The notes under the pieces were generated by a model. The model did not search any database. It saw only the letters and a list, made by a program, of their open reading frames with translations, and was not told the origin of the DNA. From an uncultured Gammaproteobacteria bacterium (GTDB lineage Bacteria > Patescibacteriota > Patescibacteriia > Patescibacteriales > UBA12075), in contig CAYWNT010000001.1 of assembly GCA_964459725.1 (NCBI GenBank), positions 27,529-91,528 on the forward strand: a DNA stretch of 64,000 nt, given 5' to 3'. Shown here piece after piece: positions 2,842-20,519 of this stretch. How positions within the stretch are numbered: the first letter of the stretch is position 1; each line of letters starts with the position of its first letter. Made by a program: the position numbers and the translations under genes.

Positions 2842-3996
2842 TTAAATATTTTTTAATATTTTGGCGTGTTTATTTCTTATTTCGGAGACGACTTCTTTTT
2901 CTGCATTCTGAACATCAGTTTTTATGAGTGCCTTAGCGTAGTTTTTAGTTCCGGATGGACTGTATTTTTTGATCAGGTCTAGGGCATTGAAGTTTTTCAT
3001 AGCATGGACTAGAATTTTGGTGGCGACTTGTTCGTTTATTTTTGTCTCATAAATTATTACCACAATCTTTGATTGAGGTATATTTACGATCAATTCATCT
3101 ATTACGTCTGAGATATCATCCTCTTTTGTATTTGTTCGCGCAAAGTCATTTTCATTAAGAACCGACCAGACAATTTTATTGTCTGATGAGCTGGCTAGAC
3201 GAGCCAGAACTCGGCCCCAGAGTTTTAGGATGTTTAGGGATCTGGATCGATATAGCTTCTTTACAATTTGTTCTCGACGAGCGCCAAGTGAGATAAGGTC
3301 TGATGACACTGAAAGAACCTGGGGAGTGATACTTTTTGTTTTGTAATTTCTAGTTTTGGAAATGATCCCGGCCAGAAGACAGGTGGCCATATTTTCATCT
3401 ATCAATTCACGGGAGTAGCTTGTTAGAAGATTGAAAATAATTTCAGAGGTGGCAATCGATGTTATTTCCGTTTTATTGATCTGTCCGTATCCTTCGTTAT
3501 TTGAGTGGTGGTCGATATTGACTATTGGGACCTGGTAAAAAAACTCAGTATCTTTTTCAAAGATGCCACCAAGTGACTCCAGGTCAGACGTGTCTAGAGT
3601 TATGATGAGATCATAGCGAAATTCTCCAGAGCGTGACTTTATATCGTTTTGGGAAAAAAATCCGTCTTTTGGATAAATAACAAAATCAAGAGAATTAGCT
3701 TCGTTTCTGTATTTTACTTTGTTTATTTTTGCATTGGTGGTGTCTAGAGAGATAATGAATTTTCTAAGATTTTCAATTTCAGTGCCTATCATGCTAGCCC
3801 CAGGCAGAAAATCAAATACATTTTTCTGGTCTATCTTTTCAGCTATAATATCAAATTTCTTGTTTAGTTTTTTGAGCAAAATCCCCATAGCCAAAGCAGA
3901 CGCAACAGCATCGCCATTCCATTCTTTGTTAAAAGTAATTAATATATTTTGAGCCTTTTTTATTTGGTCAAAAATTTGTTGATCCTGATTTAACAT
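2842..3996 (-). CDS. DHH-family phosphoesterase (NrnA-like oligoribonuclease/pAp phosphatase family)
   Basis: 384 aa with N-terminal NGDAVAS (DHH motif I-like) and the VNIDHHSNN DHH motif. The overall layout is DHH plus a DHHA1-like C-terminal half. Confidence 0.75.
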   Translation of the reverse strand: MLNQDQQIFDQIKKAQNILITFNKEWNGDAVASALAMGILLKKLNKKFDIIAEKIDQKNVFDFLPGASMIGTEIENLRKFIISLDTTNAKINKVKYRNEANSLDFVIYPKDGFFSQNDIKSRSGEFRYDLIITLDTSDLESLGGIFEKDTEFFYQVPIVNIDHHSNNEGYGQINKTEITSIATSEIIFNLLTSYSRELIDENMATCLLAGIISKTRNYKTKSITPQVLSVSSDLISLGARREQIVKKLYRSRSLNILKLWGRVLARLASSSDNKIVWSVLNENDFARTNTKEDDISDVIDELIVNIPQSKIVVIIYETKINEQVATKILVHAMKNFNALDLIKKYSPSGTKNYAKALIKTDVQNAEKEVVSEIRNKHAKILKNI

Positions 3997-4024
3997 TTGG
4001 GGAAAATAATTTGTCTAATATATA

Positions 4025-4053
4025 AATATATATCATACAGTAAGTAGTGTCAA
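4025..4053 (-). promoter_or_regulatory. Sigma70-type promoter for the DHH gene
   Basis: On the minus strand: TTGACA (4053-4048), a 17-nt spacer, TATATT (4030-4025). Confidence 0.5.
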
Positions 4054-4178
4054 CAAGTGGACGCAAATTTTGTAAGATTATGATAAATTGAGATATATTT
4101 GTCAATTTTTCGTAAAATAAAAAGGAAGAAACATAAAATATTTGCTAATAGTATGTACATATTTATTGACAAATATTA

Positions 4179-4207
4179 TTGACGGATATTGAAAATTATC
4201 ATATATT
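4179..4207 (+). promoter_or_regulatory. Sigma70-type promoter for the 4259/4528 small-gene pair
   Basis: TTGACG 4179-4184, a 17-nt spacer, TATATT 4202-4207. It is embedded in a cluster of ATTGACAAAT boxes. Confidence 0.45.
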
Positions 4208-4258
4208 GACAAATTAGTAATAATATCTACAAGATTAGTTCAAAAGAGAGGATATATA

Positions 4259-4507
4259 ATGAAGAAAAAATATTTGGAATTAAGCAAGATGAGTATTGGA
4301 GTAATTATTGGACTAGGCTCTATCTATCCTTTTGATTCTTATTGGTATTTTGGTTTTATAATTGGAGTAGTTATTATGGGGTGGGGATGGCGAGAGTCTA
4401 TGAATCATCTAAAGACCGGAAGGCCGATACCAACTCACAAAATCGGAGGCTTGATTTTATTGATTGTTGTCATTGTTAATCTGATTAAGTTCTTTTTAAG
4501 CATTTAA
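4259..4507 (+). CDS. Small membrane protein (three predicted hydrophobic segments)
   Basis: 82 aa with hydrophobic stretches. An SD-like aaagagagga lies upstream. Confidence 0.5.
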   Translation: MKKKYLELSKMSIGVIIGLGSIYPFDSYWYFGFIIGVVIMGWGWRESMNHLKTGRPIPTHKIGGLILLIVVIVNLIKFFLSI

Positions 4508-4527
4508 TTTTACAAGAGAGGCAAATA

Positions 4528-4782
4528 ATGGAAAAGAAACCGTTTCATGAAGTGGTCTTGGATAAAATAGAAAAAAGAATTCCGTTGATTTTGAGTTCTG
4601 TTAGAGCAGAACAGGACATACATGAGTTTGGAGATATTTTGAAGGATTCTTTTTTGACGGAAGAAGTTGCGACGGAAACTGTTGCCAGATTGAACGATCT
4701 AACTGAAAAGCTTTCCGGCAAGGGCGATAGAAGGCGTGCGTTTGTTTATCTTGAAAATCTAATTAAAGAGTTGTCAGAATGA
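4528..4782 (+). CDS. Hypothetical small soluble protein
   Basis: 84 aa with SD-like agagagg 7 nt upstream. It is followed by a strong terminator. Confidence 0.5.
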   Translation: MEKKPFHEVVLDKIEKRIPLILSSVRAEQDIHEFGDILKDSFLTEEVATETVARLNDLTEKLSGKGDRRRAFVYLENLIKELSE

Positions 4783-16684: not shown

Positions 16685-16712
16685 TTGACTTTACTATATA
16701 TTGTGGTATAAT
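16685..16712 (+). promoter_or_regulatory. Sigma70-type promoter upstream of nrdR-nrdD-nrdG
   Basis: TTGACT 16685-16690, a 16-nt spacer, TATAAT 16707-16712. Confidence 0.55.
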
Positions 16713-16739
16713 TATATTATAAGACACAAGATATAGTAT
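16691..16739 (+). promoter_or_regulatory. Two NrdR boxes (operator of the nrd operon)
   Basis: TTACTATATATTGTGG (16691-16706, inside the promoter spacer) and ACACAAGATATAGTAT (16724-16739) match the palindromic NrdR-box consensus acaCwAtATaTwgtgt at 13/16 and 14/16 positions. Their centres are 33 bp apart. Confidence 0.6.
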
Positions 16740-16895: not shown

Positions 16896-17360
16896 ATGAA
16901 GTGTCCTATTTGCCACAACGTAGATACTAAGGTAGTTGATTCCAGAGCAGCCAATGATGGATATTCGATTAGGAGAAGAAGAGAGTGTTCTAAGTGCCAA
17001 TTTCGATTTTCTACATTTGAAGAAGTTGAAATTTTAGATCTTTTGATCGTTAAGCGCGACAAAAGGAAAGAAGCTTATAATAGAGACAAGCTTATAAAGG
17101 GGCTTAATAGATCACTTGAAAAAAGACCGATCACAGAAGAGAGGTTTAAAAAACTGGTCAACTCTATCGAGAGAGACCTTCAGTCTTTGAAGAAAAATGA
17201 GATCATTTCTGATCAGATTGGAGAGATAATAATGAAACACCTTAAAAAAATCGATAAAGTGGCCTATATTCGTTTTGCCAGCGTTTACCAATCATTTGAA
17301 AATATTCAAATATTCCAAGAAGAGCTGGAGAAACTGATAAAAAAGAAAAAGAAAAAATAG
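16896..17360 (+). CDS. nrdR: Transcriptional repressor NrdR
   Basis: 154 aa with the N-terminal zinc ribbon MKCPICHNVDTKVVDSR...RRRRECSKCQFRFSTFE plus an ATP-cone. Confidence 0.92.
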   Translation: MKCPICHNVDTKVVDSRAANDGYSIRRRRECSKCQFRFSTFEEVEILDLLIVKRDKRKEAYNRDKLIKGLNRSLEKRPITEERFKKLVNSIERDLQSLKKNEIISDQIGEIIMKHLKKIDKVAYIRFASVYQSFENIQIFQEELEKLIKKKKKK

Positions 17361-17384: not shown

Positions 17385-19508
17385 ATGCAAAACTCAATAA
17401 AAAAACTTATCAAAAGATCCGGTCAAATTGTAGACTTTGATCAGAAAAAAGTAGAGAAGGCTATATACAAAGCAACTGTAGCGGTTGATAGAGCCAACAA
17501 GGCCCTAGCAAAACAGTTGGCTGAAGAAGTAGCAAAAAAAGTGAATGAAAAATTTCACACAAGGAGCATTCCGGCCGTTGAAGAGGTGCAGGATATTGTA
17601 GAGAAAGTTATTATCAACAATAACCACACCAAGATAGCAAAGGCCTACATTCTCTATAGAGATCAGCACAGACTACTCAGAGAAGTTAATGATACAGAGA
17701 TAGAAGATAAGTTAATGGAGGATTACTTGGGAAGAGCTGATTGGAGGCTTAAGGAAAATAGTAACATGAGTTTTTCCGTGCAGGGACTTAATAATTATTT
17801 AGCTTCTTCTATATCGGCAAAATATTGGTTGAACAAATTATATCCAACAGAAATTAGAAGTGCACACATTAATGGGGAATTACATATTCATGATTTAGGA
17901 ATGTTGTCACCATATTGTTGTGGGTGGGACCTTAAAGATCTTTTACTTCGCGGATTTGGCGGCGTTGGTGAAAAGATTCAAAGTAAGCCACCTAAACATT
18001 TTCGTTCTGCTTTGGGCCAGATAGTTAATTTTTTATACACTTTACAGGGAGAGGCAGCCGGCGCGCAAGCATTTGCTAATTTTGATACATATCTAGCTCC
18101 TTTTATTAGATATGATGGTCTAAGCGAAAAAGAAGTAAAGCAAGCATTGCAGGAGTTCATGTTTAATGTGAATGTTCCAACTCGTGTTGGATTCCAGACT
18201 CCTTTTACCAATGTTACTATGGATGTGGTTCCTTCAAAAATGATCGGAGAAGAACAAGTTATTATCGGTGGTAAGGTTATGAAGGAGAAATATGCTGATT
18301 TCCAAGAAGAGATGGATACATTTAACAAGGTTTTTGCTGAAGTTATGATCGCTGGAGATGCAACAGGCAGAGTGTTTGCCTTTCCAATACCAACATATAA
18401 TATTGATAGCAATTTTGATTGGAACAAGGAGGCATTGGAGCCAATGTGGGAAATGACAGCAAAATACGGAATTCCTTATTTTTCAAACTATATAAATTCT
18501 GATATGGACAGGGATGACGCTAGAAGCATGTGTTGTAGACTAAGGTTGGATAATAGAGAGCTTAGAAAAAGAGGCGGTGGTCTTTTTGGTGCCAACCCTC
18601 AGACTGGGAGCCTTGGCGTGGTAACTATAAATCTAGCCAGAATCGGACACCTGGCAAAAGACAAAGAAGATTTTAAAAAGAGATTAGGCAGACTTATGGA
18701 TTTATCAAAAGAGAGCCTAGAAATAAAGAGAAAAGTAATAGAGAAATACTCAAAAGACGGTTTGTACCCATATTCAAGATATTATTTGGAGAATATAAAC
18801 GAAAGATTTGGCACATACTGGAAAAATCATTTTAATACCATAGGTATAAATGGAATGAATGAAGCTTTGATCAACTTTATACAGAGAGATGTTTCAAGTC
18901 AGGAAGGAAAAGAGTTGGCTGAAGAGATTTTAGACTTCATGAGAGAGAGATTGATGGATTATCAAAATGAAACTAATAATCTATACAACCTAGAAGCAAG
19001 TCCGGCTGAAGGAGCAACATATAGATTTGCCAAGAAAGACAAAGAGCTATATCCGGAAATTGTAGTAGCAAATAATGACGCTGTAGAGAAGAAGGGAGCA
19101 GATCCTTACTACACCAATTCATCTCATCTGCCTGTAGGATTTACAAGTGATATTTTCGAAGCTTTGGATTTACAGGACGAACTACAAACAAAGTATACAG
19201 GAGGAACAGTACTTCATGGATTTGTAGGAGAAAGAATCAAGGATATTGAGAGTTGTAAGATGTTGGTAAAGAAGATTTGTGAGAAGTACCGCTTACCATA
19301 TTTTACAGTTACTCCTACATTTTCAATTTGTCCTAAGCATGGTTATCTTCCAGGTGAACATAAATATTGCCCGAAGTGTGACCAGGAAAATGGATATATT
19401 GAAGATGGCAGTGTAGAAATGCCAGCAGAAACAGTTCAATCAAGCATGGAAAAGGTTAGAGAGGGCCAGGAGAATACAGAGAGAAGTATTATTGAAGCAA
19501 TAGCGTAG
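17385..19508 (+). CDS. nrdD: Anaerobic ribonucleoside-triphosphate reductase NrdD, large part lacking the glycyl-radical motif
   Basis: 707 aa with an N-terminal ATP-cone, a class III RNR core and the C-terminal zinc ribbon ICPKHGYLPGEHKYCPKCD. A non-conserved acidic tail then ends at TAG 19506-19508, and no RVxGY/W motif is present in this ORF. Confidence 0.88.
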   Translation: MQNSIKKLIKRSGQIVDFDQKKVEKAIYKATVAVDRANKALAKQLAEEVAKKVNEKFHTRSIPAVEEVQDIVEKVIINNNHTKIAKAYILYRDQHRLLREVNDTEIEDKLMEDYLGRADWRLKENSNMSFSVQGLNNYLASSISAKYWLNKLYPTEIRSAHINGELHIHDLGMLSPYCCGWDLKDLLLRGFGGVGEKIQSKPPKHFRSALGQIVNFLYTLQGEAAGAQAFANFDTYLAPFIRYDGLSEKEVKQALQEFMFNVNVPTRVGFQTPFTNVTMDVVPSKMIGEEQVIIGGKVMKEKYADFQEEMDTFNKVFAEVMIAGDATGRVFAFPIPTYNIDSNFDWNKEALEPMWEMTAKYGIPYFSNYINSDMDRDDARSMCCRLRLDNRELRKRGGGLFGANPQTGSLGVVTINLARIGHLAKDKEDFKKRLGRLMDLSKESLEIKRKVIEKYSKDGLYPYSRYYLENINERFGTYWKNHFNTIGINGMNEALINFIQRDVSSQEGKELAEEILDFMRERLMDYQNETNNLYNLEASPAEGATYRFAKKDKELYPEIVVANNDAVEKKGADPYYTNSSHLPVGFTSDIFEALDLQDELQTKYTGGTVLHGFVGERIKDIESCKMLVKKICEKYRLPYFTVTPTFSICPKHGYLPGEHKYCPKCDQENGYIEDGSVEMPAETVQSSMEKVREGQENTERSIIEAIA

Positions 19509-19637
19509 GTTAGAGCTGTTAGATGGTTTTATAAATTTTACCAATAGTTAAATAAAATAAAATAAAAAAATAAATAAGGGTTTAGATTTGAATAGTTAAA
19601 AGTAATTATTCAATCCCTAACCCCAATCCCTATCAAT

Positions 19638-19775
19638 ATGAGTCCTATCAAAACAAAAAGGCAAGAATGCACAATATATAGCCGAGTTGTAGGCTGGATC
19701 ACTCCAACTAGAAATTGGAACAAAGGAAAGAAAAGTGAGTGGCAAGACAGAGAAACATACAAGGTAGATTGTTAA
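19638..19775 (+). CDS. Detached glycyl-radical domain of NrdD (45 aa)
   Basis: MSPIKTKRQECTIYSRVVGWITPTRNWNKGKKSEWQDRETYKVDC carries the class III RNR C-terminal radical motif. It is in the same frame as nrdD but separated by five stops. Its stop abuts the nrdG start. It falls below the ORF-track cutoff. Confidence 0.55.
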   Translation: MSPIKTKRQECTIYSRVVGWITPTRNWNKGKKSEWQDRETYKVDC

Positions 19776-20519
19776 TTGAAAATATTAATGATAATTGGCG
19801 GATTGGAAAAATTTAGCTTAATTGATTTCCCGAAGCATTTGTCGGCAATTGTTTTTACAAAAGGTTGTAATTTCCGATGCCAATTTTGTTATAATCCCAT
19901 GCTTGTCGTGCCCGAAAGGGAAAATGGGTTTGAAAAAGATCGTTTTCTTGATTCTGAAAAATCAGAGTCAATCAAAGAGAGCGATCTTTTTGTATTCCTG
20001 GAATCAAGAATTGGAAAATTAGACGCTGTAGTGATAACAGGAGGAGAGCCCCTCTTGCATAATGATTTAGAGGATTTTATCATAAAGATTAGAAAAATGG
20101 GCTTTAAAATAAAATTGGATACTAACGGAACAAGCCCAGAAAAACTGAAAAACTTAATTGAAAAAGGTTTATTGGATTATATCGCGATGGATATCAAGGG
20201 CCCGAAAGAAAAATATGTCGAAATTACAGGAGTTAATATTGATTTGAAAGATATTCTAGAAAGTATTATAATAATAATGGAGAGCGGAGTTGATTATGAG
20301 TTCAGAACTACAGTTGCTCCGAGCATGCTAGAGCCAGTTGATATAGAAAAAATGGGAGAAATGATAAAGGGTGCTAAAAAGTGGTATTTGCAGCCGTTTA
20401 AGTCTGATACTGAGTTAATAAACAATAAATATAAGAACACTTTACCATATAAAGATGATGAAATGGAAGAAATGAAAAAAAGAGGAGAAAAGTATGTGGA
20501 ATTATGTGAAGTAAGATAA
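19776..20519 (+). CDS. nrdG: Anaerobic ribonucleotide reductase activating protein (radical SAM)
   Basis: Radical-SAM cluster motif CNFRCQFCYNP. TTG 19776 or ATG 19788 is the start. Its position is directly after nrdD. Confidence 0.85.
   Translation: MKILMIIGGLEKFSLIDFPKHLSAIVFTKGCNFRCQFCYNPMLVVPERENGFEKDRFLDSEKSESIKESDLFVFLESRIGKLDAVVITGGEPLLHNDLEDFIIKIRKMGFKIKLDTNGTSPEKLKNLIEKGLLDYIAMDIKGPKEKYVEITGVNIDLKDILESIIIIMESGVDYEFRTTVAPSMLEPVDIEKMGEMIKGAKKWYLQPFKSDTELINNKYKNTLPYKDDEMEEMKKRGEKYVELCEVR

Follow-up and report, generated by a model that had tools for sequence, protein, structure and literature searches.

Within the 64,000-nucleotide (nt) stretch of contig CAYWNT010000001.1 analyzed here (assembly GCA_964459725.1; hereafter the window), which derives from an uncultured member of the Patescibacteriota, we find what appears to be a class III (anaerobic) ribonucleotide reductase (RNR) made of two subunits, a large NrdD chain that has no radical glycine and a separate glycyl-radical peptide of 45 residues. 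We put the probability of this reading at roughly 0.85. Separate translation of the small open reading frame (ORF) that encodes the peptide is, in our judgment, very probable, and from the sequences compared below we infer that the peptide works in trans with the large subunit. The genes of interest lie on the + strand between 16685 and 20519 in the order nrdR-nrdD-[peptide]-nrdG, and the same order is seen in relatives.

The nrdD large ORF (17385-19508, +) encodes 707 residues and ends past its zinc ribbon and a 42-residue tail at TAG 19506. The glycyl-radical motif is absent from this chain and is found in a 45-codon ORF at 19638-19775 (+), MSPIKTKRQECTIYSRVVGWITPTRNWNKGKKSEWQDRETYKVDC. When 19368-19778 is translated in the nrdD frame, CPKCDQEN is followed by the tail GYIEDGS...ERSIIEAIA, then by stops (five before the small ORF, at 19506, 19545, 19563, 19575 and 19593), and then, in the same frame, by the small ORF. 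An earlier sequence-only reading of this DNA had placed the radical motif in a detached 45-codon ORF behind five stops, and translation and profile matches alike confirm it. The Pfam NRDD profile (PF13597) is shared out between the two ORFs: profile positions 1-531 of 562 match residues 124-669 of the large ORF (E 8e-183), and positions 530-562 match residues 8-41 of the 45-residue ORF (E 3e-7, above the gathering score). The NCBIfam model NF006126 is divided likewise, with positions 3-654 on the large ORF and 649-683 on the small one, and when both are compared with the Thermotoga maritima NrdD (4COI), the large ORF covers residues 98-610 and the peptide residues 616-645. Since the Pfam, NCBIfam and 4COI alignments all end and resume within about five residues, the break sits in the linker of about five residues between the zinc ribbon and the Gly loop, that is, at a domain boundary.

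Judged by the features that characterize a class III RNR, the locus has the barrel (PF13597 at 8e-183, TIGR02487 at 526 bits and NF006126 at 1039 bits, all above their cut-offs) and encodes an NrdG activase alongside; the RVxG[YFW] motif expected at the C-terminus of the same polypeptide is carried on the second chain only. The peptide itself belongs with NrdD. A Pfam scan of the 45-residue ORF returned NRDD alone, without PF01228, the Gly_radical family of the pyruvate formate-lyase (PFL) type, and NCBIfam returned NrdD models alone.

The Gly motif occurs in none of the 120 homologues that match the large ORF best (73-100% identity, 677-735 residues; those that are named belong to Parcubacteria, Falkowbacteria or Pacebacteria); every one ends past CPxCDxExG[YF] and a variable tail. 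Across the clade the large ORF remains 73-81% identical and its catalytic motifs are kept. A scan of the GTDB species representatives, one genome per species, found relatives of the peptide in 321 genomes, most of them from Patescibacteria. From that scan 80 loci were fetched, and wherever the motif was found in them it lay in a short ORF closed upstream by an in-frame stop. Both parts were located in 80 loci that we measured (77 fetched, two from earlier look-ups, and the window), and they are separate ORFs in 80/80. The nrdD gene is always adjacent to the peptide gene and usually also to nrdG and nrdR. Separate ORFs are the conserved norm of a large Patescibacteria NrdD clade, not a peculiarity of one genome, and the description of nrdD as "interrupted" by an "insertion" in the sequence-only reading has to be abandoned, the split being the normal layout of the whole clade. 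That reading had also said that it would be refuted if a tail and a separate small ORF proved normal in homologues and the Gly motif lay elsewhere in the large ORF; the first half is what we observe, and the second is not.

The split is also seen outside this clade. In a more distant NrdD clade (L085), a 60-residue Gly ORF lies 90 nt downstream of a truncated large ORF, behind AAAGGAGG, and in another split clade (L086) the large ORF shares its last 14 nt with a 63-residue Gly ORF; on the strength of these sequences we regard the two as independent confirmation of the split, with what look like classical translation signals. In L086 (2501-5144), the large-subunit tail, KDEKLHEIDKKIEKLQKELEVEDEQE, and the N-terminal part of the 63-residue peptide, NKNKEELKKELNDLRALRQEILNG, both resemble heptad or coiled-coil helices, and they look as if they might zip the two chains together.

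The peptide is conserved over its whole length. Its radical glycine is Gly19 (codon GGC, 19692-19694), within the motif YSRVVGW. A homologue search returned 38 stand-alone peptides of 42-63 residues, conserved from Met1 onward, with the consensus MSPIKTKRQECIVYSRVVGWLTPV.NWNKGKKSEF.DRKTY and with M1, R8, C11, Y14, R16, V17, V18, G19, P23, N28, G30, K31, E34 and R38 invariant. The start ATG is unchanged in 83/83 loci. Over the same 83 loci the ratio of nonsynonymous to synonymous differences (pN/pS) is 0.17 (pN 0.14; pS 0.80, which is saturated), and it is 0.12 for codons 1-11: purifying selection acts on the peptide. Together, the conserved split, the invariant ATG, purifying selection and the independence of reading frame described below support one suggestion of the sequence-only reading, that of a two-piece enzyme whose radical peptide is made separately in the manner of GrcA/YfiD.

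Five alternatives have been considered. The first supposes that the peptide is a GrcA-like spare for a complete NrdD encoded elsewhere, the truncated large ORF being inactive or otherwise employed. The inspected part of the genome amounts to 64 kb, and phage contigs that carry the peptide alone show that it may serve proteins encoded elsewhere. A truncated chain with no function of its own in the reductase would nevertheless not be expected to be so strongly conserved, with every catalytic motif kept, to stand always next to the peptide gene (and usually next to nrdG and nrdR), and to be without a Gly domain in all 120 nearest homologues; we consider this explanation unlikely.

Less likely still is that the two pieces are joined after translation by a split intein or some other form of protein ligation. 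Inteins are very common in the NrdD family, and many representatives of clusters at 50% identity (P0159-P0308) are 800-1880 residues long and match in two to four separate stretches, as would be expected if each contained one to three inteins; other NrdD representatives have C-terminal glutaredoxin-like (..TCPNCK..) extensions. In the split loci, however, the tail that follows CPxCD measures 11-58 residues (80 loci), and only 10 residues precede the conserved Cys of the peptide. Flanks of 11 and 10 residues are too short for split-intein halves. A Pfam scan found no Hint or intein domain in either ORF, and the tails of the large subunit are not conserved across the clade.

A third explanation, proposed in the sequence-only reading, is that about 270 nt constitute a self-splicing intron or a bypassed stretch whose removal or skipping would give one full-length NrdD chain. 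The small ORF is in frame with nrdD in the window, phage T4 nrdD carries a group I intron (PMC3653736), and the region folds somewhat better than shuffled sequences (z -2.0). Against this, Rfam gave no group I or group II intron or ribozyme at E values up to 10 for 19200-19900, where the rows returned were at chance level and the sole ribozyme row, drz-agam-2-2, scored 10.8 bits against a cut-off of 38; a scan of the whole window at the gathering threshold found one tRNA. Across the 80 loci, 72 to 361 nt separate the zinc ribbon from the ATG, and 18 to 249 nt separate the stop from the ATG. Self-splicing introns are structured, conserved RNAs that need some 200 nt or more, and 72 nt is less than any size known for them. 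Nor is the intervening sequence conserved: in an alignment of the four closest loci, the zinc-ribbon codons, the ER..II.A.A codons that close the tail and the small ORF are conserved, and the spacer is not. Relative to nrdD, the small ORF is in frame 0 in 35 of the 80 loci (the window among them), in frame 1 in 23 and in frame 2 in 22, so that no frame constraint is apparent; no protein conservation extends upstream of the invariant ATG that opens the peptide, and in L086 the two ORFs overlap. Programmed bypass or readthrough, taken by itself, would need a fixed frame and no independent start, and was rejected on the frame distribution and on the ATG present in 83/83 loci. We regard an intron or bypass as very improbable.

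Gene decay, in which nrdD would be a truncated pseudogene and the small ORF its remnant, is just as poorly placed. The five in-frame stops and the AT-rich spacer do resemble degraded sequence, and the sequence-only reading had listed decay among its explanations, but the layout is that of all 120 nearest homologues, the peptide has relatives in 321 species genomes, its pN/pS is 0.17 with an invariant start codon, and nrdG, nrdR and the catalytic motifs are intact. Finally, an assembly or sequencing artefact, for which there is the general risk of metagenome assemblies and nothing further, and which had been named as something that could undo the observation, is scarcely credible, given that two independent assemblies from other samples and pipelines (Logan SRR8062321 and JGI 3300007511) agree with the window at every base of the junction (19380-19790), that this identity spans 4.1 kb including the junction, and that the layout recurs in hundreds of genomes.

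Several points nevertheless weigh against a two-subunit enzyme. (i) To our knowledge, a radical domain of 45 residues held non-covalently has no biochemical precedent for RNR. (ii) No second RNR was found in the 64-kb window, which is only part of the genome. (iii) An AlphaFold2 model of the large subunit concatenated with the peptide, built from an unpaired alignment, has a mean predicted local distance difference test (pLDDT) score of 69.7, with residues 641-729 below 50; in the same model the Gly segment scores about 55, and the zinc ribbon, the tail and the N-terminus of the peptide score below 50, so that a model of this quality speaks neither for docking nor against it. (iv) The small ORF of the window has no Shine-Dalgarno (SD) sequence. 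(v) A hairpin (19578-19623) ends 14 nt upstream of the small-ORF ATG. The fourth of these is uninformative, because the nrdG and nrdR starts are likewise without an SD sequence: an SD-like 4-mer occurs at 16% of small-ORF starts, 5% of nrdG starts and 20% of nrdR starts, compared with 17% of random positions. The leader of the small ORF is 46% A, and SD-independent initiation seems to be the rule in these operons.

The hairpin lies in the intercistronic spacer (19509-19637, +), which is 129 nt long, AT-rich and not conserved. It is stable (dG -16.5 kcal/mol, z -4.6) and consists of an 11-bp inner stem and a 5-bp outer stem with no U tract; nothing in the three closest relatives aligns with it. 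It might act in RNA processing, in stability or in the tuning of translation. A scan for terminator-like sites found none on the coding strand between the two ORFs.

If the two-subunit reading is correct, we imagine the enzyme working as follows. The nrdR-nrdD-peptide-nrdG unit would be transcribed as one. The large subunit, comprising ATP-cone, barrel, finger-loop cysteines and zinc ribbon, would be made without a Gly domain, and the peptide would be translated on its own from the invariant ATG in its A-rich leader. By homology and by the precedent of GrcA, NrdG would then abstract a hydrogen from Gly19 of the free peptide, and the charged peptide would dock non-covalently in the barrel with its glycyl radical beside the finger-loop Cys. 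There it would take the place that the covalent Gly domain occupies in an ordinary NrdD, and catalysis would proceed as it does in that enzyme. The benefit may be that the oxygen-labile radical part becomes a cheap, replaceable cartridge, which is the logic of GrcA/YfiD.

Additional evidence comes from viruses. A scan of IMG/VR with the peptide alignment identified 214 viral contigs, of which the best 80 loci were studied with 10-kb flanks (1.2 Mb in total). The motif is in a short ORF in 75/76 of those that a script could classify, and of the best 80 loci, 78 lack an NrdD large subunit within 10 kb and 79 lack NrdG over the same distance. The settings are those of phage genomes: in L111 the peptide gene (2941-3144) lies between the large terminase and a P22-like portal gene, and elsewhere it adjoins genes for an M23 peptidase (L098, L099), an amidase (L109) or a primase (L169). 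Some of the phage peptides have an N-terminus in the style of the candidate phyla radiation, M[SA]PIK.ERQEC, and others have a longer N-terminal extension, ..NGDLxLDNGxIIPAxKR..CEVYSRVVGYLRPV. Annotated phage records, searched by tblastn with two peptide types, gave only two or three weak matches, which lie within full-length nrdD genes where annotated. Because phage contigs carry the peptide gene without nrdD or nrdG, the peptide probably acts in trans; an orphan phage peptide would be hard to explain otherwise, unless it acted with the large subunit of the host as the T4 protein Y06I does for the PFL of its host. Of the properties of a GrcA/YfiD-like cofactor, stand-alone coding is observed here, and trans action is what the orphan phage copies indirectly favor. 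We speculate, at about even odds, that the peptide is the first autonomous glycyl-radical cofactor for an RNR: an obligate, exchangeable cartridge charged by NrdG and exploited by phages, which would carry the peptide gene alone to recharge or take over the host large subunit during infection.

The closest parallels are GrcA/YfiD of E. coli and Y06I of phage T4, in which, as proposed here, a small separate radical-loop protein is charged by an activase and serves a large subunit in trans, and for which a phage version likewise exists (PMC8683613). GrcA, however, is a 14-kDa back-up for PFL molecules whose own Gly domain was lost to oxygen; here the large subunit never has one, and the peptide would be obligate. 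In addition, the 45-residue peptide is of the NrdD family (the C-terminus of PF13597), unlike GrcA/YfiD, which is of the PFL type. The validated spare parts are limited to YfiD and Y06I, which both serve PFL, and such parts for other glycyl radical enzymes are speculation (PMC8683613, 2021).

Divided reductases of other classes are also on record. In the class Ia RNR of Aeromonas phage Aeh1, nrdA is split into nrdA-a and nrdA-b by the homing endonuclease gene mobE, and the pieces still work together (PMC3653736); that case differs in RNR class and break point and is confined to a single phage lineage, whereas the split described here has become fixed across hundreds of bacterial species and, in the window, the endonuclease is absent. 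The class II NrdJa/NrdJb of Pseudomonas aeruginosa has its catalytic chain divided between neighboring genes, the second chain bearing a C-terminal accessory domain (PMC9669993), but NrdJb carries a zinc finger and an IscU-like domain instead of a radical site, and the class and cofactor are again different. Canonical NrdD proteins (T. maritima, 4COI/4U3E; phage T4, 1H78) have the same barrel, double-Cys loop, Cys/His-type ribbon, RVxG[YW] motif and NrdG partner; compared with them, the chain described here is broken in the linker and the large subunit gains a free C-terminal tail. The group I intron of T4 nrdD (I-TevII) also interrupts nrdD (PMC3653736), but as a ribozyme acting at the RNA level, and it yields one chain. 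The searchable full-text literature, which covers the field in part, yielded no account of a class III RNR whose Gly domain is split off, and one may be mentioned elsewhere (e.g., in RNRdb notes); the passages of a 2026 review of glycyl radical enzymes that deal with split enzymes, spare parts and GrcA contain no such RNR system. We know of no characterized glycyl radical enzyme in which the radical glycine is not on the catalytic chain.

The large subunit is in other respects an ordinary NrdD. It has an ATP-cone at residues 7-96 and a catalytic barrel whose finger loop, SMCCRL (residues 381-386, nt 18525-18542), has the double Cys of the T. maritima type. The zinc ribbon, ICPKHGYLPGEHKYCPKC (ICPKH...CPKC; residues 648-665, nt 19326-19379), is a predicted metal site in which C649-x2-H652...C662-x2-C665 aligns with the ribbon region of the T. 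maritima protein (TmNrdD), for which a Cys/His/Cys/Cys zinc motif of this type has been described (PMC4493059).

Beyond the ribbon, residues 666-707 (nt 19380-19505, +) form a clade-specific tail, DQENGYIEDGS...ERSIIEAIA, recognized from the tails of 80 relatives and the nucleotide alignment; it counts 42 residues after CPKC and 38 after CDQEN. The sequence-only reading had noted about 39 unrelated acidic residues at this place. A tail does exist, but it is 42 residues long, and its last nine are conserved in the closest relatives. Those nine residues, ERSIIEAIA (19479-19505), represent a motif, ER.[IL]I[QEN][AS][IML][AS]-stop, at the extreme C-terminus of a long-tail subgroup, in which the preceding 30 tail residues vary freely. 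The ERxIIxAxA ending is found in 19/120 close homologues and in 7/72 loci, and AlphaFold2 draws residues 688-707 as a helix with low confidence.

The cysteines of the two chains deserve comment. Cys11 of the peptide (QEC, 19668-19670) does not vary among the 83 peptides, and unsplit relatives keep its equivalent, as xxCEVYSRVVGY, eight residues ahead of the radical glycine. From the sequence, a role for Cys11 as a fourth zinc ligand is neither needed nor excluded, the ribbon of the large chain being already Cys/His/Cys/Cys. In 72 paired loci among L001-L083, the cysteine content of the free C-termini of the two chains seems to co-vary: 15 of the 16 tails ending in a Cys pair (CC or CxxC) are matched with a peptide whose end contains Cys (SCC or ACSE type), a raw count that ignores phylogeny. 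The tail in the window has no Cys, and its peptide ends in ...KVDC. Such co-variation might reflect a disulfide, a redox shuttle or a metal site between the chains. The gene for the peptide is easily overlooked; in L002, L087, L088 and L089 a small Gly ORF of 43-45 residues is present in the DNA but uncalled, the one of L002 being called in the near-identical L003, and automated annotation would thus present a reductase that lacks its radical site.

Downstream, nrdG encodes a radical-SAM (S-adenosylmethionine) activase of 243 residues (19788-20519, +; Pfam Radical_SAM), which is of the NrdG2 type (TIGR02495, 9.5e-61, 204 bits against a cut-off of 131). Its ORF can be read from TTG 19776, but the start at ATG 19788, MIIGGLEKF (ATGATAATTGGCGG), is conserved in relatives, where the ATG lies at a variable distance past the small ORF, and nrdG most likely starts there and not at the TTG. 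The view that the stop of the small ORF abuts the nrdG start at 19776 is thus probably mistaken; the apparent abutment arises because the ORF was read from its first possible start codon. Upstream, nrdR (16896-17360, +) encodes a transcriptional repressor of RNR operons of 154 residues (Pfam Zn_ribbon_NrdR, 1.8e-20; ATP-cone, 3e-18).

A candidate operon promoter precedes nrdR (16685-16739, +, including two NrdR-box-like sites; promoter scan and pattern search). It consists of TTGACT (16685-16690), a 16-nt spacer and TG-TATAAT ending at 16712, an 11/12 match, and is overlapped by the NrdR-box-like 16-mers at 16691-16706 and 16724-16739, which have three and two mismatches and are spaced 33 nt from start to start. 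From this arrangement one would expect the whole unit, from nrdR through nrdG, to be autoregulated; the sites are no more than matches to a consensus, and the four such NrdR-box matches in the window are only marginally above chance. The earlier argument that an intact nrdG, an intact nrdR and NrdR boxes show the operon to be in use therefore holds for the two genes, and the boxes are present only as these imperfect matches.

How widely the split is distributed in the NrdD family was approached by classing the C-termini of the 150 best representatives of clusters at 50% identity by sequence pattern matching. About 62/150 end soon after the zinc ribbon without a Gly motif, some of which may be truncated gene calls, and about 69/150 are complete, including some that are close, at 58% identity, and read CPKC-x3-5-CEVYSRVVGY. 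When 151 homologues were placed on a rough neighbour-joining tree, the split state proved to be patchily distributed. It changes about 22 times, a figure to which we attach no weight since some of the "split" entries may be truncated calls; the tree contains pure split clades of 21, 15 and 8 sequences.

One contig bears on how the split may have arisen. In L084 (split clade P0284), a 315-residue homing endonuclease (DUF7487; 3685-4632) directly follows the truncated large ORF; it matches PHROG 3339 and 12131 (E about 1e-16), and the contig ends before any Gly ORF. Because this layout mirrors the mobE insertion of phage Aeh1 nrdA, it suggests, by analogy, that the split arose by homing-endonuclease invasion at the junction. 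Subsequent loss of the endonuclease in the lineage of the window would have left behind the unrelated tail and the AT-rich spacer.

If the two-subunit reading is right, a glycyl radical enzyme can have its radical domain on a diffusible subunit of its own. The enzyme would then offer a natural system for studying how an activase meets the Gly loop, which single-chain enzymes have to swing out of their barrel. The phage genes that stand alone point to an auxiliary metabolic gene of a new kind, and genomes in which the 45-residue gene goes uncalled could be taken to be without a functional RNR. For the organisms themselves, the arrangement would mean that anaerobes with small genomes may cope with oxygen damage cheaply, replacing 5 kDa of protein rather than 80 kDa.

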